DNA of 63,685 nt, filler included, from Globobulimina sp. (Eukaryota): assembly GCA_003354225.1 (NCBI GenBank). It is 20 parts of 20 records of this genome, joined end to end, with 100 filler letters (N's around TTAATTAATTAA, not from the genome) between each part and the next. Parts side by side here need not be neighbours in the genome. Positions count along the whole stretch, not along the records: positions 60,601 to 63,685 come from PIVH01003768.1; 19 more parts are not named here. One strand, given 5' to 3'. Shown here one piece after another: positions 1 through 63,685 of this stretch. The position numbers and the translations under genes are program-made. The notes beneath the pieces are model-generated. The model was not told the origin of the DNA, did no database searches, and saw nothing but the letters and a program-made list of their open reading frames with translations. The stretch's first letter is position 1. Each line of letters starts with the position of its first letter.

Positions 1-705
1 AGTACATTTGCAATTACTTTTGCAACACAAATAAAATATAAACAGCAATCCAAATAATATCCATACACCAACCGAACACAAAACAAAAAATACTAAGAAA
101 AGCAGTAATGCCAAAGAAACACTAATACTAAATAAGCCAATAATAATTAAAACAATAAAAATTGCGATAAGCAGCCTATTTTTACAAAAGCAGCTATTGC
201 CTCTGGTAACATATTCATTTTGTGGCATATTAAATTTTTTCGGGTGTTTGGGATCATACATAATTTTAATTGTATCTCCTTCAGTCAATGTTGCAAATAA
301 TTTGCGTGTAATTAGATGTTTATTTGTTAGTACTGCTTTGAATTTAATCTTTTTATCATAGAATGATAAAATTGCATTTTTTATTACTTGTGGGGTATCA
401 TTGTATATGTTTTTAATATATCCAAATACTAACAATTTTGCTTTGTGTTCAATGTGTTGATCCTCTGCATGACTGAACTGATAACAAACAGAGAATGCTG
501 CTAATTCACCTAATCTATCATTACAAACAGGGAATGTTGTTTTTGTCAAAGATTGTATTATACCATTTGCCAATACCCCTCGTTTTTCCAATGCAAATCG
601 TTTTGCGATCATAAAATATATCGGAATTAATGCCATCCAAAACAGGACAACGAATATTATGTGCAATAAAACGTTCCCTGGAAAAAAATATTGTAACCAA
701 GTCAT
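1..705 (-). CDS. DUF3592-like membrane protein, 3'-partial (not in ORF track)
   Basis: Manual translation from ATG at 705 is open to the contig edge: TM IIFVVLFWMALIPIYFMI, then LEKRGVLANGII, then EGDTIKIMYDPKHP (DUF3592-like pattern), then further TM segments. Confidence 0.6.
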   Translation of the reverse strand, partial: MTWLQYFFPGNVLLHIIFVVLFWMALIPIYFMIAKRFALEKRGVLANGIIQSLTKTTFPVCNDRLGELAAFSVCYQFSHAEDQHIEHKAKLLVFGYIKNIYNDTPQVIKNAILSFYDKKIKFKAVLTNKHLITRKLFATLTEGDTIKIMYDPKHPKKFNMPQNEYVTRGNSCFCKNRLLIAIFIVLIIIGLFSISVSLALLLFLVFFVLCSVGVWILFGLLFIFYLCCKSNCKCT

Positions 706-1105
706 TTGAACGATGAGTTCCGAGATAACCGATCACCAAAAACAAGAATATTTAAGCCAGTACAAAACCTGGTTCAGTTTGAGTACCGTACGAGCAGTCG
801 ACTCAGCACAGCACCTACCTAGATACAGGGAATTCGACGGAGATGAATTATACATTAACAGAAGTTTCTGTTCTATGGAAATAAATTAAGGCGAAGCAAA
901 AGTCAATAAATTGTGATTTCAACAGGCGTTAAATGGTATTTATGGACTATTAGATGATAAAATTTAAATCAATACTCAATTATGAATACTTACTTAATTA
1001 TGAAATGTATATTTTTAAAATTTTTGTACCTCGTCCTCGTCTGTTGTCATAATTGAAATATCAAACATTTATGTAATCTTTGTACGTTGAACAAGAAATT
1101 AAAAA

Positions 1106-1378
1106 ATGATAGAAACGACCCAAACGAAAGCAGATAAAACAAAGAAAGAATTGCAAAATACAATACAGATCGCCATTGATCGCAATACGAAACTATCCGT
1201 TTTAAACGAGACATCAAATAAATTATCAATGAGTTCAGATATATTTGCAAAAAAAACCAAAGAAGTTAAACAACAAAAGAGAAAAGAATATGTATCCTCA
1301 ATCTTCAAATATATTTGTATTATAATCGCAGTGACTGCATTGTGTGCTTTGTTAGTGTGGCATTTCTTATTTAAATAG
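1106..1378 (+). CDS. Synaptobrevin/VAMP-family R-SNARE
   Basis: 90 aa. Heptad TIQIAIDRNTKLSVLNETSNKLSMSSDIF with central Arg, basic linker and C-terminal TM anchor. Confidence 0.8.
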   Translation: MIETTQTKADKTKKELQNTIQIAIDRNTKLSVLNETSNKLSMSSDIFAKKTKEVKQQKRKEYVSSIFKYICIIIAVTALCALLVWHFLFK

Positions 1379-1482
1379 TTCGCATTTTCTGTGTCATAAC
1401 TAAAAATTCGCAATATTAAACTTGTGATGACTCTTTTGATGAAAATGTCGAAAAACTTTATCTGGCAGCGACAGCCTGAATA

Positions 1483-3094
<1,612 letters not shown>

Positions 3095-3194
3095 NNNNNN
3101 NNNNNNNNNNNNNNNNNNNNNNNNNNNNNNNNNNNNNNTTAATTAATTAANNNNNNNNNNNNNNNNNNNNNNNNNNNNNNNNNNNNNNNNNNNN
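3095..3194. other. Artificial contig spacer N44-TTAATTAATTAA-N44 (first of 19)
   Basis: Identical 100-nt spacers start at 3095, 6289, 9482, 12675, 15867, 19058, 22249, 25439, 28629, 31818, 35007, 38195, 41382, 44569, 47756, 50943, 54130, 57316 and 60501. They carry stops in all six frames, and contig lengths fall from 3094 to 3085. Confidence 0.99.
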
Positions 3195-3591
3195 TTTACA
3201 GTTTTTTACAGATTATTCAAAATAAAAACATTGAAAGTCAAAATTGAATTCTTAAAGGTTGTGTTTCATCGGGAACCATTAACATTTTATTATTAACCTA
3301 TTTTCCTTCCAAGCTTTTTCTCGCAAATGATTAAAAAAAGTTGATCATGAGCAAAATCAAGGTCAAATAGGAAAACTCTAATGAGCCCTGAATATGAAGT
3401 CTCAAGGTCAGTACTGACAGAGGCTCACGTTCGTTAAAAATAAAACAGTTTTACTGGCGTTTTTTTTGGTAAAAACACCAAAACACTACAAATTGCACGA
3501 CCTACATAAACAAACACAAAACAAGTCACTGCAGAGAAGCAGCGGACGTACGGACCTAATTTTCATTGCGGCGATCACTGATCAGTCAAAC

Positions 3592-5669
3592 TCAAACATG
3601 TTGTCTTTGTTGTATACTTAAAATCATTTCATTTTTTTTCTCATTGTCATCTAAGATTTGCACACTCGAATTTATTAGTTTATAATAATCACTTTCTTCA
3701 TCATCGGAACTTGTAATAATATCGAATAAACTGAGAGCATTTGGCAATATATAATTATCATTCTGATTCTCATTATTATACGATTTATAGCCTAAATATT
3801 GAAACACAATCAAATGTATTTCATTCTCACCACTCTCGTTACCAAATCTTTGTTGAATAACATCTATTCTTTGCCTATTCAAATGAATATAATTATACGC
3901 TTCATTCAAATATTTGTCAGGCTCTTCCTGCCAATTTCCAGCACGTGAATACAAACTGTACCATAAACACCGCACCATCTCCAAGAAAGACGGTAGAAAT
4001 AATAACATCACAATTATGACAGTATAATAACTCCACATAAACCAAAATAATCCGCGTACATCACCGCTGCAGTCAGCATAGTTCACTCCGACCACAACAG
4101 ACACGAAGACTGGATATATTATGGCGCCATATATGGCCAGCAACACTTGAGTCGGAGCAATAAAATAAATAAACATCATCTCAATGATCTTACGAAACAA
4201 ATTAAAGCATTGATATTCATCCTCATTATCAATATTTAGATTCACTTTATCATAATCTGCAGTGCCTACAATTGCGCCCAAATCAAAAAATTTCATCAAA
4301 ACATCCCTCATCAATCCATCATATCCCTCATATAAAACAATACTCATTTTATCACCCGATGTTACGAACAAATTCAAATCAAATTTCTCATTCCAACGAC
4401 ATTCAAAATCGTCTTTTTTTTGTTTTTCACCTTGTTTTGGCGTTAAATTTGCATATTTTTCACTTTGCGATTTGTTTTGTTGCTCATTGTTCGGTGTTAA
4501 ATACCAAATTAATGTTTGTTCCACTTTTTGTAACAAATCAAAATATTTCATATTCTGGTTGGATATTTTTATTTCATTGGAGTCATTTGATTTAAATTCA
4601 AATTCGTTACATTCGTCGTCAGAGTCGTCAGATTTCCGATGTTTGGCAGCAACGGGAGTATAGATTGGATTTTGTGCATCTTCTTCTTCATCAAATATCC
4701 TTTGAATTAGCCATAAATAATTAAACAGCCATAATCGCAGAGAATAATCGTATTTATTTACCTTTTCATGTAAGAAGCGAATGACATTAAACCATAAATC
4801 AAATTGATATTCATACGCATTGTGATAAAATATTAACAGTGGATAACTAAAAAAAATGGTATCTACAAATAGCCAAATAAATATTAACGCGATCGGTATC
4901 AACAAAAATAATAATAATGAATTCAAAGAACAATTTGGAACGGAATGGAAACCATGAAATACAAATAAAAATACTGCATAAAATGGTGAAAAATACATGT
5001 TTTTATAACAAATATAAACGTCGCTGTGTTAACAACATCCATTGTCCAAAATGATTTGAATGGGCCGTCATATTCGTATCGATTGTAAAATATCCAATTT
5101 GTAATGAACCAGATGGTCAAAAGGCCTTTGAATGTATCTAATAATAAACATATTAAATGGAACGCATTTGCTTTGGTAGGGATACAGCCGCCGTGACCTA
5201 CAAATACCAACGGCACAGACATTGAAGTCAAAAATATTGAAATCAAAGACATTGTGAAAGGGGCAGTTAGCGAATAATTTATTAGATACACATTGTTGAG
5301 GATGGCCATGGGGATTCCAACAAGAAATGCGTGCGATATCGATCCATAAAAATAACGACGAAATGTCATGGACCAAACATGCCGATATTTGAATAAAACC
5401 AATGGTAAGAAATCAACTAAAAATATGGACCAATAATGATGGGGACCGGCTGGCGTATATTTGATGATCTGATATTCTAAACCGATTAACCAGATTAACT
5501 TCGTAAATATCAGTGTAAATAAGGAAAAACTAAAAAACCATTGACTTCCAAACGCAGAGTATTCGTACATTAAATAATAATAAATTGCATTTTGAATCAA
5601 TGATACAATGATTAAAACATTGCAAACATTATAGTTTAGCCTCGATATCTCAAATTTTGTCCAAGCCAT
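3592..5669 (-). CDS. Multi-pass membrane protein, weakly XK-related, split by an apparent frameshift near 5000-5030
   Basis: Two overlapping hydrophobic ORFs (5669-4923 and 4998-3592). HAFLVGIPMAILNN...SLISIFLTSMS resembles the XK-family E-S-x-P-Q segment. Confidence 0.5.
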
Positions 5670-12894: not shown

Positions 12895-15866
12895 TCAAAC
12901 ATCTTTCAATTCAACAATTTGATATTTATCACCATCCCTTTCAATATATCCCTTCTTGTCATTCCCCTGCAATTCCTTATCGATCGACATCACATGCGAT
13001 AACGTACAAAATGGGCCATAACTCGCCGCAATTCTCAATCCCATTTGCAACGATTCATTTGCAGTTTGCTTATTAAATGCTGACGCGTTTCTAGATCGCC
13101 CTTTTACTTTTTTCAACGTCGACTGACTGCCTAAATGTGCTTTTTTTTTATCCCCGCCACCTCCATCATTCTCCTCCGCCTCGTCATCATCATACCAATT
13201 CCCGCCGTTATCGTCGCCATTTTGTGCATATCCTCCACCATGACCGCCGGAGTTAGGATTAATAAAATCGTCATCCGGCTTTCCAGTCTCTTCATCGCCA
13301 TCATCGGCCTCTTTTTTTTTAATTTTTTCATTATTTTCATCATTTTCATCATAATCGCTGGGCCTTAGCACTGTAATTTCGATCTTTGATAAACTTACAA
13401 CAAATTCGCGCAACTCGTCTTCCGTTGGAAAGCCAGAAACGATTAAAAACCTATCATCAGTTAAACGATATAGTTTCAATTGAATGGATTGATTGTCTTC
13501 CATTTCGAACACGATTCGTTGCATAAACTTTATGAGCGTCAAGTCTCCGCATTTCCGGCCATAATTGTCGTTCAAATGTGAGAACTTGCGGATATTTGTC
13601 ACGATGAAGCCCAATTTCCAGCGCATTTTGTCCTGGACATCTTTGTTAAACCTATAAATATTTGGCAGCGAAGTCAAAGTGTCGACGTGGTGGACGAGGA
13701 AAAATGAGCCGCGACATAGTAACGACAACGGGCTCTGGAATAATAACTCCATGGCGTACGGGTACAATGCAAACGCGATCAAAATGATATAAATCACAAA
13801 TTTCTGTTCAAATTCGAATTTGAAATTCCGCATCACCCAGAATTTGCAAAATAGCACCACTGAAAACAACAAACGCACAAAACATTCGAAGCGAATCACG
13901 TTTTTGCCCCACGTTTGCTGCTTTCTTTGCTGTTGCTGGATGTCTGAGGACGCACTTTTTATGCTCGGCAAGATTTGAAATAAGCCGCAAACGCTCCACA
14001 TGGATAAAAGCATCGCTTGGATCAATTTGCCACCTTACAAAGCAAAGGAAATGTCAATGTATACAGAATTGCTGTGGAGGTTATGCGACTGCACATTTTT
14101 GTGTGTTATTTTGAAGAAAAGCTTTGTAATTAAATTAGTTCAACACTGGGTCTGCGCCGTTTGCGACAAAGTTGCTGATAGGCGATGGTAGCAATGGTTA
14201 TTTTGAAGGCGAAGAAGAATATAATATATCCCAAATACGACTGATGTCCAATCACGACCGAAAAATAAACACAGAAGAAATATACACCAAAGTATATACT
14301 GTACAAAAATAACAGAAATATCCCTGTTTTCACTGTATATTAACATGCCATTTATCTATCTGTTCAACAGAAATATAAATAATTTAACTGAGATCAAGCG
14401 TGATTTTGCACCACTTTGCTTTGCGTAGCTGTGCATTTTCTGCGTTTTCGTGAATTTCTGCAGTGTGCAGTTGGATGGGTTGGGTCAATATTGCTGAGCT
14501 CGGCATTTGTAAATTGCAATTAAGAAATGACACAATTCGAAAATGAAAATTAAAAAAAACTCATAATGCTGCATTATAACTTATAGTCAACAGACCTGAT
14601 TTTTTGATGGTAAGCTTAAAGTGTTGGAGTGGAGCGTCCATAGATTTGCCCAAAGCCGTGCTCCAAATAAATAAGACATACACGACATAGCCGCAGAGCA
14701 CAACGGCAATATATCCGAGCCAGACGCGAACGAATAATATGAGCAATAAGCCGCGAATTAAAGTGTCGATCCACAGCATGAGCAATACCGCAATATACTG
14801 CAACTTTGAGATGTTTTGCCAGAATCGGAAATGATACACCTTCGAGTAATGGACTACAGAGTCCATTAACAGCAGCAATATCGGGATGGTGTTGACGTGC
14901 TCGAACCAGAGCTGATGGGCAAAGTTTGTGGACCAATTCAAATACTCTTCGCCCAGGTAATCACTCCACGGATATTTCTGCCAGGAAAGCGATATAAAGT
15001 AACAAAACCATAAAATGCTGAATTCCACGATCTGTTTATACCAAAAAGTGTGACATTGCAGATTTGCAGCACTGACATGTAATTATAGATTTATATTAAC
15101 TTTGTACTGCATGAGACACTCTCGCATGATAATTTTCCTTTTTTCAAGGAAATACATGTCGACGCCGGCTAAGCCAAATATGAATAATGCGGTGTGGTAA
15201 AGTTGCTGTGTCCAGTCACCAATCAATGGATAAAAACCACCGCGCGAGGAACTGGCAGTTATTCTGAAGAATAGACACCAAAAAATGAGTAAAATGATAT
15301 AGGAAATGAACCAGATTAATTGTGGTGACTTGGATTTGTAATTGAGAACTCCGCTGCTTATAATTACTAAATACATCCATAATATTAATGATTTGATCAG
15401 TATCCATTTTCTGGCCGACTCTGGTAATGGTTCAGTTGAGTGCAGATTGTAATGTTTAGAGACTGTGCGTGTTGCTGATGATGCTCCTTTTTTGTTTTTG
15501 GCAGCATCGCCATCTACATTGTCAGTCCGGTCGTTGGTTACATCATCACTGGCCAGGGGAGGGTTGATTTCGTCGTCGAGTTCTTGCTGAGCTGCGTGGC
15601 GCCAAGCGTCTGAGTCTTCTTTTTCGTCCCAGTCGGATGGGTGGAGGTCTTCTGTGTTGCTGAGTTTATTTGCGTCTTCCTCATCTTCCATTTGCCACGA
15701 CATGATGGAGCTGGGAGTTTTGCAGTAGAGTTTTGCAAATATTGCAGCTCCAAGGAATGGAAGAAGCACTGTTGATTGCAGGGATTATATTTACAATCCT
15801 ATATTTTATCATATTGATAATATTGTGTATTGCTGGGATTACATCAGGCGTTGAAGGAGAAGATGG
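12895..15866 (-). CDS. Multi-pass membrane protein with C-terminal degenerate GGDEF (diguanylate-cyclase-like) domain, 5'-partial
   Basis: In-frame GT-AG introns 15032-15100, 14458-14595, 14333-14388 and 14034-14146 join the exons. After the last TM: DTLTSLPN, NIRKFSHLNDNYGRKCGD, YRLTDDRF. Confidence 0.75.
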
Positions 15867-19157: not shown

Positions 19158-22100
19158 CCATACCAACCAAACCTAAACATAATGCCTTATCCCATGCAAA
19201 ATATGCCCATATATCCCGCCAACAATCCCGCCATAATGTACTCGCATCAATTGATGTTACAACGGCAACAAAATGCTTTCTATCAAAGCAAAAACAAAGC
19301 AAAACCAGTCCCAAATCCAACACAAACACAGACTCAAAACCCAACGCCGCCTCAAACGCAAAATGCAGCCAAACCGTCACTGCAATCCATGATCAAAGGC
19401 ACCATCAAAATGGAACCAAACCCAAACACAAATATAGCGACAGCCACCGAGAAAAACACGGACAACAAAGTCAAGTTTTCCTTCAATAAAACAGTGAATA
19501 AAAGTGACAAATTGCAAGGGAATATAATGAGGCCACAACGGCGAGACTTTTCCTCTGAAGATGAAGAAATCAATCATGAATCCACCAGTTATACGTCAAG
19601 CTCCTCATATTCAGGCACAGCGTCGTCATTTGGTGGACGCAGTAGGTCCAATTCCATGGACAGAAACAAGCGGAGATACTATAAGTACAACAGAAGGGAT
19701 AGCCGTAGGGACAGATATAGGTACAATAGGCGCGAGAGAAGGGATAGATATCATAGGAGGAACAGCCACGGCCATCATAGTCGTACGCATGCACATAACC
19801 GAAGGGAGGGCAGAGAGGGCAGAGATGTACGGGAGAGAAGAGGTGGCAGTGTGGCGACCAATGTGTGTAAAGACGATGGACTGGAGAAGGTGATATCGGA
19901 TGTAATGGACAAATCGACGTTGTCTGACCCTTCGCCTACGTATCCATACAATGTGACGAAGCCGGACGAGCCGGTCAAGGCGATACATCCGGTCAAGCAA
20001 ATCAAGCAGATCCTGAGGGAGAAGAATGAGAAATGCAATGAGGGGATGCATGTCTGTGCGCTCACGCCGACACCGCCTACGCCTCTGACTGCGCAGGTGG
20101 AGAAGCATAATATTTCAGGTGTGTATGCTGTGCGTGGTTGTATGCGCTGTAACTTGCTTGAACGCTAAGATCGTTTTTGGGCTCATGGTGAGTACTAAAC
20201 TTTTTCAGTAACTTAAGGTTTTTTTTCACAGTGGTAAATGTGTGTATGATGGCTTGGATAACAGACTGTTTTCATGTATATAGGCGGTATGGGTGTAAGT
20301 AGCGGTCACTCTGTTTCGAATAAAAAATATTCATCGCCTGGCAAGAGTGATATGACGCATAGGACAAAGAATGAGCGACATCGCAGAGATGATAGGGAGA
20401 AGGAAAGGGAGCGGGATAGAAATAGAGAGAGGAACCGAGGGCGGAATCGAGACTATGAGGGGTACCGACGGAGGGACCGCAGACAGGACAGAGATAGGAA
20501 CAGATCGCGAGGCCGGGATTCACGGAGACATTTTCGATATAAATATTCAAATAAATCGACAGTGAATGCAAGGGATCGAGAGCGGAATGGCAATGGTAAT
20601 AATTACAGGGACAGAAGGCGGAAAAGAAGAAATCGAGGCAGATCACCATCGATTTCGTCGTCTATGCCCCGCAAAAATAATAATAGCAACAATAGGAGTG
20701 CTAAATCGATGAATCATAATAAAAATAATAACAATTTGCCGGAGAAGCAGAGAATGGGTAAAATAAAAAATGTCGCTGAGGCTGTGAAGGAGAAGAAAAA
20801 TGTTGAAAGCAACAAAAAAAAGACAAAGGATGACAGCGGGAATGGCGGTGTTGAGGTTCGGGTGAAGGAGAAAAGGAACATTGTGAGTTTAGAGGCGATG
20901 AAGCATCCATTGATGATACAATATCTTGAGACCAATCACGAGAAAGGAAGCAATGAAACGGGATCCGGAGAAAATGTGATGATTCAAGAAAAAGTACAGA
21001 ACGCAGTTTCAAATATACACAAAAAAAACAACCACGCAAATTCAGAGAGTGTCAACGATGAAAAGAGTAAAATTCGAAATTTAAAAGTTGAAAATAGCGG
21101 CAATTTGACGACGATCCAGGCGGTGTATAACAAAATAACGCAACATCACCAATTAAGCTCTCAAATACACGCAGATGACAACGAAATGGATGCGGAGTCT
21201 TCGATGTCTTCGTCGAATTCGAGTGATTATTACAAGCGATACAGTCACAGTCACAGTTCGTCGGTAAACCGGAAGAAGAAAAGCAAAAATGAAAATAAAT
21301 CCGATTGCAAGAAAACTAAAAACAAAAATAAAAGCAAAAAAAAAGGGGATCGGGCCAGTCGGCGAAGGAGATATTCGATTTCGTGCAGTCGCTCTCTGAG
21401 CAGATCCAGATCGCGTTCGAGGACTCGGTCTGATGATTCGTACTCAAATTCGCAGTCTCATTCACATTCACATTCACGTAGTCGTAGTCGCAGTCGGTCC
21501 GATGATTCGTATTCACACTCAAACTCAAACTCAAACTCATTTTCCTCAAATTCCCACTCGGAACGTTTGAGGTCGCGGCCTCGAAAGAAGTTGCATAAAA
21601 ATGTGAAGAATGCCAAGAATGAAAAAAAAGTGCTGGCTCCGCCACCGATTGGCGTCCGAGTCGAAGTGGCACCAAATCGGATATCGACGAATAACAAAAT
21701 AATTCAGACCCATTTCGTGAATAAAATGAATTTGCAGTCCATTTTCCATCCGCTTGTCATCGATGATCAATGCAGTTCCATTCCGGTGAGCAGTTCGAGC
21801 AATAAATGCCATGCAATGATTCAAACTGCTTCCTCTGTTTTGGGTGTTTTGGGGCGCCAAAAGCCGCCAAAGTTGGCCAAGAATGGCAATTTGGCCAAGT
21901 TTCTGCGAGGCAATGGCGAGGATTACAAGGTTATGAATGCGATTTGGAAGAAAGTGAATGAATGTTTTAAATCCTATAAAATGAAGGAAAGCGATGTGAT
22001 GCGATGCAAAGTGATTCGACAGCGAATATTTATTCTTTTATGCCGCGAATATTTACGGATTCGATCGCATCCGTTGCGGGAATGTGATATTTCAATTGAA

Positions 22101-42369: not shown

Positions 42370-43590
42370 TTAGTATGTAATGATCCGCGATAATCGTTGT
42401 ATTCTATTCAATAATATATCACCTTTCTTAATAATTTGTTGATAATCGTTATTTTTCGAATTAACTCTATTTATATGTACAATGCCATTCACTTTATCGA
42501 TCTTACAATTTAATTTATTCGCAGCAATATAAGACGACAACTCCTTATCCAAAAAAATCGTACTTAGCCCAAATTCTTGCGCCATTGACGACAATTTAAC
42601 GCTTCGATACGACTCTAAAAATTGAGAATACGCTCTCAACCGTACCTCCCTCAAAAAAAAATTACTATGATGGTTCAAATACACATCAAAGCGTATAAAC
42701 TCTCGCATGATCTCGATCAATGAGCGAAAAAATTCATTATATCGACACTCGTAAAAGGAATACAAAAACGATTTGAAAATGGGCAATTTATCAATAATTT
42801 GTATAATCTCTGGTGCTTCGATTAATTTCTTGTTAATCACCGACCGATCCAAGGATAAAACCGATGAAATGATGACATATTTCACCAATTGCGGATAATC
42901 AAAGATCTCATTGGCGCTGAACGTAGCAATGCTGTCTAATAATCCATGCGCGGACTCTTTGAATTTGCGAATGCGAAAATAATGCGCCGAGGTATAGATT
43001 GTAAATCGGTTCCGGCGGTCCCAGTCCCCGCCTTTTTCAATCAATTTGGCGGTCTGCGCCATGTATTTGCGATATAAATGGTCGTCATTCCATGCTAAAC
43101 ATATCCGTAATATGGTTAGATATTTATCGATCTCTTTGCCAGTGGTTAGGCCTTTGATGGATAAATAATTCTCGATCGAGACCTCACTGCTGCAGCAAAG
43201 TGATAATATTTTCGCTTTTTCTAACTCGACTTCATGGATTTCGACGTCGCCCTCATTCTTCTCGGCCAACTCCTTTTTCTCTTCGTTTTGGGCCAATAAT
43301 TTGGTTTTGTTTTCTTCCCATTTATGCACCAAAGAATCGTCTATTTTTAATTCATTTTTGTCACATAAATCGCGGTAAAATGAGATCATATTATTCTGGT
43401 CGTAAATGGTCATTAATTGTTTCAAGAGCGCTTCTTCTTCGTTGTGATTATTGACCGTAGCGTCGGCTTTTAATAATGTAAATCGCGAAGCTAAACCTGC
43501 TGCTTTTAACAGTGTATCTACTTCTTCTTCTCCTTCGTCCTCGCCATCTACTTCCATTTTTTTCTTTTCCTCATCTTTGGAGTCTGACAT
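42370..43590 (-). CDS. RPN7: 26S proteasome lid subunit Rpn7/PSMD6
   Basis: GGDWDRRNR, YSQFLESY, LNCKIDKVNGIV and IKKGDILLNRIQRL. Confidence 0.97.
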   Translation of the reverse strand: MSDSKDEEKKKMEVDGEDEGEEEVDTLLKAAGLASRFTLLKADATVNNHNEEEALLKQLMTIYDQNNMISFYRDLCDKNELKIDDSLVHKWEENKTKLLAQNEEKKELAEKNEGDVEIHEVELEKAKILSLCCSSEVSIENYLSIKGLTTGKEIDKYLTILRICLAWNDDHLYRKYMAQTAKLIEKGGDWDRRNRFTIYTSAHYFRIRKFKESAHGLLDSIATFSANEIFDYPQLVKYVIISSVLSLDRSVINKKLIEAPEIIQIIDKLPIFKSFLYSFYECRYNEFFRSLIEIMREFIRFDVYLNHHSNFFLREVRLRAYSQFLESYRSVKLSSMAQEFGLSTIFLDKELSSYIAANKLNCKIDKVNGIVHINRVNSKNNDYQQIIKKGDILLNRIQRLSRIITY

Positions 43591-60500: not shown

Positions 60501-61114
60501 NNNNNNNNNNNNNNNNNNNNNNNNNNNNNNNNNNNNNNNNNNNNTTAATTAATTAANNNNNNNNNNNNNNNNNNNNNNNNNNNNNNNNNNNNNNNNNNNN
60601 TGTTTTTTGTTTGAGTTTGTTTTTGTTTTGTTTTTATTTTCTGCGTCAAAAAGTTAACTTGAAAAACTGTTCCACAAAATCACTTCTTTGCACTTTGACA
60701 TAGCAAAAAACTCACAATTCTGTTCCGCAAAAAAGTGCACATTTTTTCACTAAAAATACAAATACCACAGTTTTCAGGATTTCTAGAATTATTCCAATTT
60801 CTACAATTATTCAGAATCCGAATAGGTAAACCCTTTTGAAAAATCGTGGAAATGGTTCAAATAAAAATGTGTATTTACCACAACCAGATGCAATATTAAA
60901 CATGTAATAGGTGGACAACAAAGTAGCACGGCGGGTCGATACAGTCATAGGCAAGAACCCAAGGAGGAAAAGCCCGGAGGTAAGAGGCTTAATTCCTGTG
61001 TTTGAAATTTTTGGACCTATAAGTTTTTGAGTTACTCAGAAGTTTTTGGGTATTTGTAAAAATGTTACATTCATGTACAAAATTCGTCTCTGAAATTCAT
61101 GTACAAAATTCTTG

Positions 61115-61213
61115 GAAAACGTTTCTGAAAATGTTCTGAAAAAACGTTACTGAAAATGTCGTGGAAAAATTTTACTAAAAATGTTTCTGAAAATGTTCCG
61201 GAAAAATGTTTCT
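61115..61213. repeat. Degenerate 12-14 bp minisatellite
   Basis: Repeated GAAAA(T/C)GTT(T/A)CT-like units. Short direct repeats nearby (TTCATGTACAAAATTC twice). Confidence 0.55.
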
Positions 61214-61595
61214 ATAATTCTCGGATTTATATTGATACTTCATATACAAATCATTAAGTAAATATACAAATCCTTAAGTGAGGAATATTTCGATCATATG
61301 AATCCTATATGTGATCGAGATCATATACGTACATCTTATCCGGAACACTACTGTATACAAAAAACTTTTTTCAACCCCCATTTGTATAATTGTCAAGAAA
61401 ATTTATGATTGATACGATGTTACAATACATTCACGATTTACAACTAATGATTGTGTTTGGAGATAGAGCATCAAGAATGCAATATTAAAATTGGTAAATA
61501 AGTTGTGGTTTAATATTAAGAATTTCAAAATGTTATATTGTAACAAAATAAATTATAAAATAACAACATAAATTATAAGCCCACAAAAACATTTG

Positions 61596-63551
61596 TTATA
61601 TTTTATTGTAATCATTCTTGATCCATTTGCTCCATTGAGGTGTTGATGAAAGTAAATCAGTAACTTTATCCTTGAATAAATGGTAAGTGGCAACCATAAG
61701 GATCCAATACAGCGCATACACGGCAGCACCAGCACAACAGACATATATTTCTCTTGCATTCCAGACAAATTGAACATAATCTTCAAAGAATGCTTGTTTA
61801 ATGACAGTATAGCCGACACCAATCAGAATGATACTGCTCCAAATACATAATGGAATTAATGGTTCCAAATTTAAAACCCTGTTTAACCGGCCAGAAGTGC
61901 CCCATTTCTTTTTATTCATAGTGCAGATAGCATATATTTTCGCAGGTAACAATGAAGTCATATACAACCAGCTGTACATAGACATAAATATAAGTCTCCA
62001 TTCTTTTCGAATAAGTGCCGCAAAGAAACTTTTGAGTAAACCAACAGTTTGAATCAATAGAAGCATATAAATAACAGTCCATGTTCGCGACGAATATGCG
62101 ACTTTAATACATGTAGCAATAATAAAGAAATGGAACAATCCGGTTATCATCATTTCGTAAACCAACCAGAAAGAATGTTTGTGAACCCACATTAAATTAT
62201 AAAACCATTCACGATAAAAGGATTTGGACCATCTAATTTGTTGATTAAACCATCGGAAATAAGTAGCCGGTGTCTCAGTCATACACGAGGCATTTGCACA
62301 GTATTTAGTGGCATAGCCACATTGTAAAATTCGATTCGTTAAATGGCGATCCTCTCCAAACGTACAGGTAGTTCCTAAAAACTTTTGGTCTGACCATTCA
62401 GGTAAACATTCATTTAATACACTCATTCGATATAATCCGTATGGTCCACTGATACAACCAACAGTTCCCCAAAATGACTGTGCTGCGCGTTCAATATGAA
62501 AGGCCATTTCATAACGGCACGCAGATAAAAATGTCATTAATGACTCTTTAGCATTTAAGATGCCAACAAAGCCTCCAATGGCACCAGTTAACGGTTCATG
62601 TTCCATAATATTTACCAGATGTTGTAAGCCGGCTGGATCAAATATAGTATCACTGTCAGTTACTAAAATATAATCACATTTCATTGCTTTTAAAATTCGA
62701 AAACCAGACATCATAACATCGCGTTTCCCATTCCATTTTTGATAAATACAACAATGATTATATGTATCAGCTGCAGTTTTAACTTGATCTAAAAAAGATG
62801 TCCATCCATCATCCTTCATAGGACAGTTTGGGTAATAACGACCATAATATTTCCAACCAAATGTTAATGTTTTATATTCGCACATAATCTCTTCAAATAT
62901 GTTGACCATATATTCATCTGCATCTTGATTACCATCAATACATAAACAAATATGTATTTTTTCTGCTGGATAGGAAAAGGATAATAAAGATTGCAAACAC
63001 CATCGTAAATATTGCGGATCTTCTTTGTAACAACTAATTTGAATACCAATTGTTGGCCACTTACTACGATCCGACGGTAATGAATGTTCCGCGAGAAAGG
63101 CGTTAGTTCGATGATTATTTAACATTGCACTCAAATGTTGCATTACCATATGAACCATCACTGCACAGCCATACAATTGTAAGGCAGCATAATAATATTG
63201 TGCTGTCACGAATGTTTCGCCAATCCAATACATTAAAATAATTGAACCAACGCATGCTACTCCAAATAGGTAAACCGATATTGTTCGGAGATAGAATGTA
63301 AAATATTCAAAGCATGACGCTCTTACAGGTAATGATGATCTGAATTCATTTGATCTACGACGTGAACCTGTTTTGGGTAAATGGTGCCATGGTTGCCATT
63401 CTGCCCCAGTCTCACATTCATTGTTACAAATATGATTCTGTTCTGTTGCTTCGCATTCAATCATTTGATTCATTTCAATGGCAATATCAGCCATATCACA
63501 ATTGTGATTCTCTTCTTCCAATTCAGACTCTTCTTTGTTATTATTTATCAT
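61596..63551 (-). CDS. HAS: Class I hyaluronan-synthase-like processive GT2
   Basis: YKED, IDGN, WNGKRDVM, TDSDT, ERAAQS, CISGP, GEDRHLTNR, TETP, QQIRWSKS, SLLPAK and WGTSGR. N- and C-terminal TMs. Intronless, probable ATG at 63551. Confidence 0.88.
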   Translation of the reverse strand: MINNNKEESELEEENHNCDMADIAIEMNQMIECEATEQNHICNNECETGAEWQPWHHLPKTGSRRRSNEFRSSLPVRASCFEYFTFYLRTISVYLFGVACVGSIILMYWIGETFVTAQYYYAALQLYGCAVMVHMVMQHLSAMLNNHRTNAFLAEHSLPSDRSKWPTIGIQISCYKEDPQYLRWCLQSLLSFSYPAEKIHICLCIDGNQDADEYMVNIFEEIMCEYKTLTFGWKYYGRYYPNCPMKDDGWTSFLDQVKTAADTYNHCCIYQKWNGKRDVMMSGFRILKAMKCDYILVTDSDTIFDPAGLQHLVNIMEHEPLTGAIGGFVGILNAKESLMTFLSACRYEMAFHIERAAQSFWGTVGCISGPYGLYRMSVLNECLPEWSDQKFLGTTCTFGEDRHLTNRILQCGYATKYCANASCMTETPATYFRWFNQQIRWSKSFYREWFYNLMWVHKHSFWLVYEMMITGLFHFFIIATCIKVAYSSRTWTVIYMLLLIQTVGLLKSFFAALIRKEWRLIFMSMYSWLYMTSLLPAKIYAICTMNKKKWGTSGRLNRVLNLEPLIPLCIWSSIILIGVGYTVIKQAFFEDYVQFVWNAREIYVCCAGAAVYALYWILMVATYHLFKDKVTDLLSSTPQWSKWIKNDYNKI

Positions 63552-63685
63552 TCTTTTTATTGTATTGTAAAGTGCTAAAAGTGGAAAGAAACTATTAATA
63601 GAAACTAAATATAGATACCGTTTGTATAAAGTATAAAGTATAAAATATGTCAACCATAATCACTTTCATAATCATATAATCGCAG

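Follow-up and report, generated by a model that had tools for sequence, protein, structure and literature searches.

A divergent hyaluronan-synthase-family gene of the vertebrate-type clade in the assembly of a foraminifer-like protist

The reading frame and its contig

The stretch of DNA considered here (the window, 63,685 bases) is taken from the Globobulimina sp. assembly GCA_003354225.1, and its last contig (60601-63685) carries an open reading frame (ORF) on the minus strand, running from an ATG at 63551 to a TAA at 61596-61598 without a break in 651 amino acids, whose product (P0001, hereafter the query) belongs to the family of class I hyaluronan synthases (HAS). The window is not a single locus; it consists of 20 contigs of 3085-3094 bp, ordered by decreasing length and joined by spacers of the form N44-TTAATTAATTAA-N44, and as such the adjacency of genes on different contigs is meaningless. 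An earlier note on this DNA had described an intronless gene at this position, AT-rich like the other contigs, and both the 651 uninterrupted codons and the GC content of the contig (0.33, relative to 0.31-0.43 across the other 19) agree with that description. Furthermore, each of the motif stretches it had quoted is present in the translation and aligns with its counterpart in Xenopus laevis HAS1 (XlHAS1; PDB 8smm). Taking the evidence together, we consider it moderately probable that the gene encodes an intact and probably active HAS-family enzyme of the clade that contains the vertebrate HAS, that it resides in the nuclear genome of a foraminifer-like protist, and that its product contains N-acetylglucosamine (GlcNAc), with hyaluronan as the leading candidate, and serves the extracellular matrix.

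The coordinates of the gene, its principal motifs and its flanks are collected in the table below. A longer, TTG-initiated form of the frame extends to 63653, and is unlikely to be coding because other assemblies carry frame-breaking indels directly upstream of the ATG (a 73-bp skip in X2; a 5-bp insertion, TATAA, together with a 7-bp deletion in X1). At the amino terminus, the AlphaFold model assigns a predicted local distance difference test (pLDDT) value below 50 to residues 1-22 and 26-75, the alignment to XlHAS1 starts at query residue 90, and a downstream methionine could be the true start of the protein. Tandem repeats with units of 7 and 13 bp lie upstream of the ATG, at 63587-63615 and 63624-63648; the tandem-repeat scan of the contig as a whole returned short AT-rich arrays only, and Rfam returned no matches on it at E values up to 0.1. 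In the protein itself, Pfam identifies GT2-type families and a partial match to Chitin_synth_2 (PF03142, profile positions 200-491 of 527).

Table. Features of the contig that carries the HAS-family gene, in coordinates of the window
Feature	Coordinates	Strand	Basis
Coding sequence of the 651-residue class I hyaluronan-synthase-family glycosyltransferase (P0001)	61596..63551	-	Uninterrupted ORF, Pfam, XlHAS1 match, tree
Cytosolic GT-A catalytic domain, about residues 160-450	62202..63074	-	Pfam, XlHAS1 alignment, conservation, model
DxD motif, D299-S300-D301 (D301 corresponds to XlHAS1 D242)	62649..62657	-	Alignment, invariant columns
G399-E400-D401-R402, in place of the family GDDR	62346..62357	-	Codons, homologue alignment
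QxxRW motif, Q437-Q-I-R440-W441 (acceptor-positioning Trp, diphosphate-binding Arg)	62229..62243	-	Alignment, invariant columns
Gating-loop motif, W550-G-T552-S-G-R555, followed by L and not K/R	61887..61904	-	Alignment
N-terminal extension, residues 1-75, acidic, predicted disordered, absent from XlHAS1	63327..63551	-	Model pLDDT, alignment
AT-rich upstream region with short tandem repeats and indels between assemblies	63552..63685	.	Repeat scan, assembly comparison
Non-coding 3' stretch built of repeats, high-copy in the source sample and also in a second study	60601..61424	.	Word depth, tandem repeats

Family placement and predicted fold

The best match to the query in the PDB is XlHAS1 (427 bits, E 1.3e-126, query residues 90-626 against chain 41-578), and the HAS of Chlorella virus (CvHAS) comes next at E ~2e-51. 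Homologues were collected by a word-indexed search of 5.8 billion proteins, which gave 152 matches at E <=1e-10 (the best 120 were used), and by running HMMER exhaustively on 1.84 billion 50%-identity representatives, which gave 3597 matches at E <=0.001 and 334 at E <=1e-30; a search of the ESM Atlas resulted in the same family assignment. No full-length protein more than 49% identical to the query was found in the HMMER search or among the best 120 of the 152 word-index matches, and fragment matches reached 60% identity over 150 residues. The best matches are marine or metagenomic proteins, the HAS1 and HAS2 of fish and other vertebrates (35-43% identity) and diatom proteins (41-43%, from Leptocylindrus danicus, Cylindrotheca closterium, a Bacillariaceae metagenome-assembled genome and a cluster with a Pseudo-nitzschia pungens member). 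The 'hyaluronan synthases' of Mucoromycota stand lower among the matches, at 31-39%. Identities among the best 80 of 183 prokaryotic relatives are 25-35%, and the best 80 of 378 metagenome relatives reach 48% at the top.

In two of the metagenome contigs the HAS-like gene is split into two parts, with 2.5 and 5.8 kb between them (L134, 24-572 and 3060-3938; L135, 3537-4193 and 10001-10879), and the C-terminal half of these genes is 51-53% identical to the query. That separation means that they contain introns; considered as a source of close kin, they were set aside as genes of other organisms. The ends of the closest metagenome contigs showed neither a poly-A tail nor any other clue to origin.

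Two trees were built, a quick one of 84 rows with support from the Shimodaira-Hasegawa-like approximate likelihood-ratio test (SH-aLRT), and a careful one of 40 rows (IQ-TREE, LG+C20 with posterior mean site frequencies, PMSF; ultrafast bootstrap, UFboot, and SH-aLRT), for which 44 of the 84 rows were dropped as long-branch prokaryotes, redundant fungi, redundant viral or vertebrate rows, or near-duplicates; amphioxus, tunicate and HAS3 rows are absent from both. In the careful tree, the query falls within a clade that holds all vertebrate HAS, all diatom sequences and the marine metagenomic sequences (100/100, with a stem of 1.0 substitutions per site), and the quick tree agrees (SH-aLRT 100). 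This clade divides into subclade A (99/94), comprising the query, P0038, P0039 and P0041 (100/98), and P0002, P0004 and P0009, and subclade B (99/98), which holds the vertebrates (100/99), the diatoms and JGI sequences in no resolved order. Outside fall chlorovirus HAS, a further clade rich in giant viruses, Mucoromycota, one basidiomycete and all prokaryotes. The placement of the query in the class I HAS family, and within it in the clade that contains the vertebrate HAS, is therefore supported by these comparisons. A phylogeny of this kind had been proposed as a check in the earlier note; here it joins the query with vertebrate HAS and not with viral, fungal or prokaryotic homologues. The note's term 'vertebrate-type' is correct at the level of the clade, because the clade holds the vertebrate HAS with maximal support, and needs qualification below that level, where the query sits in a protist subclade that is sister to vertebrates plus diatoms.

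The giant-virus-rich clade was considered as the sister of the vertebrate-type clade, to which the quick tree joins it with an SH-aLRT of 95; the careful tree shows a polytomy at that point, and we claim no direction of transfer. Contigs of two assemblies labelled Gammaproteobacteria also carry HAS-like genes. That of L046 (1600 bp) groups with a giant-virus clade (100/99), so this contig may be mis-binned viral or eukaryotic DNA; that of L045 (292 kb) branches on its own close to the base of the eukaryotic and viral groups.

The predicted structure leads to the same family. The AlphaFold model has a pLDDT of 81 and a predicted template-modelling score (pTM) of 0.81, and superimposes on XlHAS1 with a template-modelling score (TM-score) of 0.92 and a root-mean-square deviation of 2.4 Å, and on CvHAS with TM-scores of 0.86-0.87; the alignment given to the predictor held HAS homologues, and as such the fold match is not independent of the sequence similarity. 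On XlHAS1, the model displays the full architecture of the family: a GT-A domain, interface helices, transmembrane helices (two N-terminal, four C-terminal) and a channel. Identification as a chitin synthase was rejected on fold, given Foldseek TM-scores of 0.3-0.4 to chitin synthases (Chs1, Chs2, PsChs1) as well as cellulose synthases and the partial match to PF03142. Identification as NodC was rejected likewise, since the NodC equivalog model TIGR04242 (NCBIfam) scores 177.4 bits on the query, far below its cut-off of 550.

Set beside its relatives, the query presents a mixture of shared and private features. With vertebrate HAS (XlHAS1, PDB 8smm/8smn/8smp; fish and tetrapod HAS1/HAS2) it has in common the clade, the fold, the DxD, QxxRW and WGTSGR motifs, the acceptor collar and the channel arginines; at an identity of 35-45%, it differs from them in having GEDR rather than GDDR, H352 rather than N, QLYG rather than GLYG and L rather than K/R after WGTSGR, as well as in its acidic N-terminal extension of ~75 residues, its intronless gene and its place in the sister subclade. 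The nearest relatives, P0002, P0004, P0009, P0038, P0039 and P0041, are marine or metagenomic proteins (Logan, JGI, ENA), some of them auto-named 'hyaluronan synthase'. Relatives in subclade A share with the query VTDSDTI or CTDSDTI, WNGKR, ERAAQS and the loss of D in a 'GGDV' stretch (replaced by N, C or F), but are at most 49% identical to it, and all have GDDR. The diatom HAS-like proteins are likewise protist members of the vertebrate-type clade, but share subclade B with the vertebrates; a length of 950-957 amino acids sets some of them apart as longer, and one is named 'chitin synthase' by its source. Chlorovirus HAS (PDB 7sp6 and others) and the giant-virus genes belong to the same class I family and have the same fold and catalytic motifs, but are 24-36% identical to the query, fall outside the vertebrate-type clade and carry WGTRG in the gating loop where the query has WGTSGR.

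Active-site residues and the probable product

The GT-A domain of the query contains, in order, IDGN (204-208), GKR (275-277), DSD (299-301), GEDR (399-402) and QQIRW (437-441), and the protein as a whole agrees with the family at 66 of 68 columns for which conservation across the 103 other full-length homologues is 95% or more, the exceptions being N352H and D400E. The metal- and nucleotide-binding DxD(T) motif is present as D299-S-D301-T302 in invariant columns, the acceptor motif QxxRW as Q437-Q-I-R-W441, and the catalytic-base aspartate with its arginine as D401-R402 (XlHAS1 D342, CvHAS D302); in CvHAS, a D-to-N mutant of the base is reported to be inactive (PMC12987647). The WGTSGR portion of the gating-loop motif WGTSGR(K/R) is complete, with an L in the last position (L556) that is found in 8 of the 105 aligned rows, the query included. 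The first G of the GLYG motif in the second transmembrane helix, which is replaced here by Q125, is G in 90 of the 105 rows and variable elsewhere.

For comparison with the solved structures, the XlHAS1 residues named in PMC11750622 were mapped by hand through the alignment to the PDB sequence, in which the chain index equals the residue number plus 13. CvHAS residues were mapped by motif context only, because the viral record tried as a numbering reference (L029) is offset by about 7 residues. The gating-loop pocket of XlHAS1 (E109, D242, E367) is kept as E177, D301 and E426. Its acceptor collar (Y288, F292, C307, W382, S385, D342, R343) is kept as Y347, F351, C366, W441, S444, D401 and R402. 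The arginines that contact glucuronic acid (GlcA), R287 and R296, are kept as R346 and R355, while R381 and G547 are kept as R440 and G608. The gating-loop residues W491, T493 and R496, described as important for activity in PMC11750622, correspond to W550, T552 and R555. In CvHAS, the GlcA carboxylate is said to be sandwiched by the lysine of GKR and the arginine of QxxRW (PMC12987647), and the counterparts of these residues, K177 and R341, are present as K276 and R440. Among the named XlHAS1 residues, those changed in the query are D341 (E400) and H543 (V604). From the retention of the DxD motif, the base, the collar, the arginines, QxxRW and the gating loop, it follows that the catalytic machinery is intact.

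If the query works as its homologues XlHAS1 and CvHAS do, one and the same polypeptide would both polymerise and export the chain. UDP-GlcNAc and UDP-GlcA would bind alternately in one cytosolic GT-A pocket through the DSD motif (299-301) and a divalent cation, with the WGTSGR loop (550-555) inserting over the nucleotide. D401 would act as the base that deprotonates the acceptor hydroxyl while W441 holds the acceptor at the mouth of the channel, and the chain would advance one sugar per step through a channel formed by the interface and transmembrane helices. The resulting GlcNAc-containing polymer may feed an extracellular organic matrix, such as a test lining, cement or adhesive secretions. 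Activity, product and cellular role are inferred in this manner, and we rate hyaluronan as the single likeliest product, albeit at under even odds.

The active site also holds the points that weigh against hyaluronan synthesis. Strictly taken, GDDR is absent from the query, its first aspartate (XlHAS1 D341) being replaced by E400 (codon GAG, 62352-62354), as the earlier note had observed. GDDR is found in all 120 homologues among the matches listed (the best 120 of 152), among which E400 is unique to the query, and D occupies this column in 103 of 103 full-length homologues. In the structural work on XlHAS1 (PMC11750622), GDDR is called an invariant motif, and the start of its helix forms part of the donor pocket for the GlcA carboxylate. 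The second exception, N352H, adjoins a residue of the acceptor collar, and H352 is common to the query and its sister protein P0038. As GEDR borders the GlcA pocket and N352H adjoins the collar, the specificity for UDP-GlcA may differ in this enzyme. D400E is a conservative change at a residue that is not shown to be the base, and lowers confidence in HAS activity and not in homology; it sits exactly where substrate choice could be affected.

These substitutions underlie the most credible of the alternatives, namely that family and host are as described above and that the product is chitin, chito-oligosaccharides or another GlcNAc polymer, the active-site changes disfavouring UDP-GlcA. NodC and chitin synthases are members of the same processive GT2 superfamily with QxxRW, and we take a glutamate at the position of E400 to be their normal state (E-D-R), as it presumably is in cellulose synthase (T-E-D). 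The loss of the 'GGDV' aspartate throughout the subclade of the query points in the same direction, as do the acceptor promiscuity described for CvHAS (PMC12987647) and the chitin oligomers once reported for the Xenopus enzyme DG42 (PMC3942024). This alternative is nevertheless unlikely, for the exchange of D for E is conservative, the other residues that contact GlcA or hyaluronan in the solved structures (K276, R440, R346, R355) are kept, the NodC model scores far below its cut-off, and the query lies deep within the clade of the only eukaryotic HAS with proven activity. The caution of the earlier note, which had left the product open in view of GEDR, is borne out by the position of E400 at the start of the GDDR helix. 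A UDP-glucose dehydrogenase was not among the 20 ORFs of the other contigs in a general Pfam scan, which was not a dedicated search for that enzyme.

The organism behind the gene

Genes on the other contigs of the window are likewise single long ORFs, and their products are ordinary proteins of eukaryotes (legumain, ArfGAP, RCC1, PI3/4-kinase, RPN7, an ESCO acetyltransferase, an M14 carboxypeptidase and a SET domain protein), and as such the lack of introns in the HAS gene is normal for this assembly; Pfam matched 14 of their 20 ORFs, 3 of these below the curated cut-offs. The RPN7 ORF (42370-43590) provides the taxonomic marker. Its full length matches a protein of Bolivina argentea at 74% identity, and 71% of it matches one of Nonionella stella at 80% (both species are Foraminifera, from EukProt); identity is 79% to a metatranscriptome protein and ~40% to that of every other named organism.

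Composition links the HAS contig to this assembly. Its tetranucleotide signature correlates with that of the pooled other 19 contigs at r 0.747, within the leave-one-out range of those 19 (0.648-0.855; 0.724 for the RPN7 contig), and r was -0.02 to 0.55 for 15 control pieces taken from HAS loci of giant viruses, bacteria and metagenomes. The k-mer comparison suggested in the earlier note therefore groups the contig with the rest of the assembly and not with the viral controls. The codon usage of the HAS ORF (r 0.83) and its GC content at third codon positions (GC3, 0.288) are typical of ORFs in the window.

Read data add a second line of evidence. In a run that contains 91% of the words of the contig, one Logan contig spans 61203-63663 and links the whole ORF to sequence with a depth in the thousands. 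Word depth across 60601-61424 is 166-5209 in seven of eight bins (28.9 at 60910-61012), relative to 17.4 in the gene, so that most of this stretch consists of high-copy repeats of the sample. Three pieces of the ORF recur in a run from a second study, with 0, 0 and 2 differences; that run also contains, at high depth, a repeat belonging to this family, and an element at ~60807-60909 is abundant there. An independent assembly of the reads yields the ORF without any difference. A further run, X4, aligned to the HAS contig on repeats only, and nothing in run X3 aligned to it. Since composition, repeat linkage and recurrence in a second study agree, we favour the main, repeat-rich genome of the sample as the source over a virus or a co-sampled organism. 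The protist origin proposed in the earlier note is consistent with the compositional match to the assembly, and the source that we infer can be narrowed to a foraminifer-like organism on the one marker gene, RPN7.

On the other side of this assignment stand several observations. It draws on a single marker gene, located on a different contig, and on composition, with 3 kb of context around one gene; the HAS contig has no repeat in common with any of the other 19; and no homologue from the two foraminiferal transcriptomes in the database searched was found among the best 120 of 152 matches or the 17 matches to shorter proteins, none of which came from EukProt. It could accordingly be argued that the contig is giant-virus DNA, inserted viral DNA or DNA of a co-sampled eukaryote (symbiont or prey) and not part of the chromosomes of the protist itself. 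HAS-like genes are common in giant-virus contigs, an alignment-based scan of 2.9 million viral contigs having found 44 such loci at 25-36% identity, and diatoms, which are possible prey or symbionts of foraminifera, carry members of the clade. We consider a foreign origin decidedly unlikely, however. In tetranucleotide and codon usage the HAS contig is indistinguishable from the other contigs, where viral, bacterial and metagenomic HAS loci score far lower, and the gene is physically continuous with repeats whose depth exceeds its own 10- to 300-fold and recurs with a repeat of that family in the second study. Furthermore, identity to the query peaks at 36% among viral relatives and at 43% among those from diatoms, as opposed to 49% for the nearest protein; the alignment-based scan of viral contigs thus yielded no close relative, and an exact-peptide scan of the viral contigs with the query protein alone gave no match. 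Last, a decaying or catalytically dead copy, for which the unique departure from GDDR might be cited, is highly improbable given an open frame of 651 codons, the retention of 66 of 68 near-invariant positions with the catalytic base among them, a confidently predicted fold, and an ORF that is identical in the independent assembly and nearly so in the pieces from the second study.

Two other contigs of the window warrant mention in their own right. An ORF of 372 amino acids at 12895-14013 on the minus strand encodes a GGDEF diguanylate-cyclase domain (E 5.5e-10) in this eukaryote assembly; its GC3 (0.466) is higher and its codon-usage fit (r 0.55) weaker than those of most ORFs, and the tetranucleotide signature of its contig agrees with the rest (0.855). 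The contig at 19158-22248 has the highest GC content in the window (0.428). It carries a 328-amino-acid ORF on the plus strand (19182-20168) that is an outlier in codon usage (r 0.20, GC3 0.52), is without a match in Pfam and shares bases with a 160-amino-acid antisense ORF; a 676-amino-acid ORF beside it is also without a family.

Significance for Foraminifera and for the HAS family

Hyaluronan synthesis by class I HAS is regarded as a trait of chordates that also occurs here and there in microbes and chloroviruses. The enzyme family, its fold and its mechanism are known already. What is new here is the foraminifer-like rhizarian lineage, the divergence of the protein (which makes up a separate 50% cluster in a set of 15 billion proteins) and the variant GEDR; the gene adds a divergent new member to a known enzyme family, from a lineage not previously reported. 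Diatom and marine members of the vertebrate-type clade do have entries in databases, some of them auto-named 'hyaluronan synthase' or 'chitin synthase'; in the full-text literature searched, which covered few subscription journals and no supplements, we found no paper that describes HAS genes in foraminifera, diatoms, stramenopiles or protists at large, or that characterises the diatom HAS-like proteins.

PMC11648905, citing Langer 1992, names glycosaminoglycans as a main constituent of the foraminiferal test's organic matrix, and we found no enzyme proposed for them in the same literature. The HAS gene is thus a testable candidate for the enzyme that makes the glycosaminoglycans of the organic matrix under the calcite test. 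The gene also touches upon the dispute over a fungal origin of chordate HAS, in which Crisp 2015 argued for transfer from fungi and Salzberg 2017 for gene loss and rate variation. In both of our trees the vertebrate HAS are nearer to diatom and marine protist sequences than to fungal HAS-like proteins, and the addition of a divergent member from a foraminifer-like genome enlarges the sample available for a test of this question. It is speculative, and on the whole doubtful, that Foraminifera, or this lineage of rhizarians, use a vertebrate-type HAS to synthesise true hyaluronan or a closely related glycosaminoglycan, which would serve as an organic template for the test and in adhesive secretions, and that chordate HAS would be one branch of an older marine-protist radiation (diatoms, rhizarians and others), the chordates having received the gene from it, or donated it, by horizontal transfer and not obtained it from fungi. 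At the strength of the evidence presented here, the gene may equip this protist to make hyaluronan, or a sugar polymer related to it, and bears on the source of the vertebrate enzyme.

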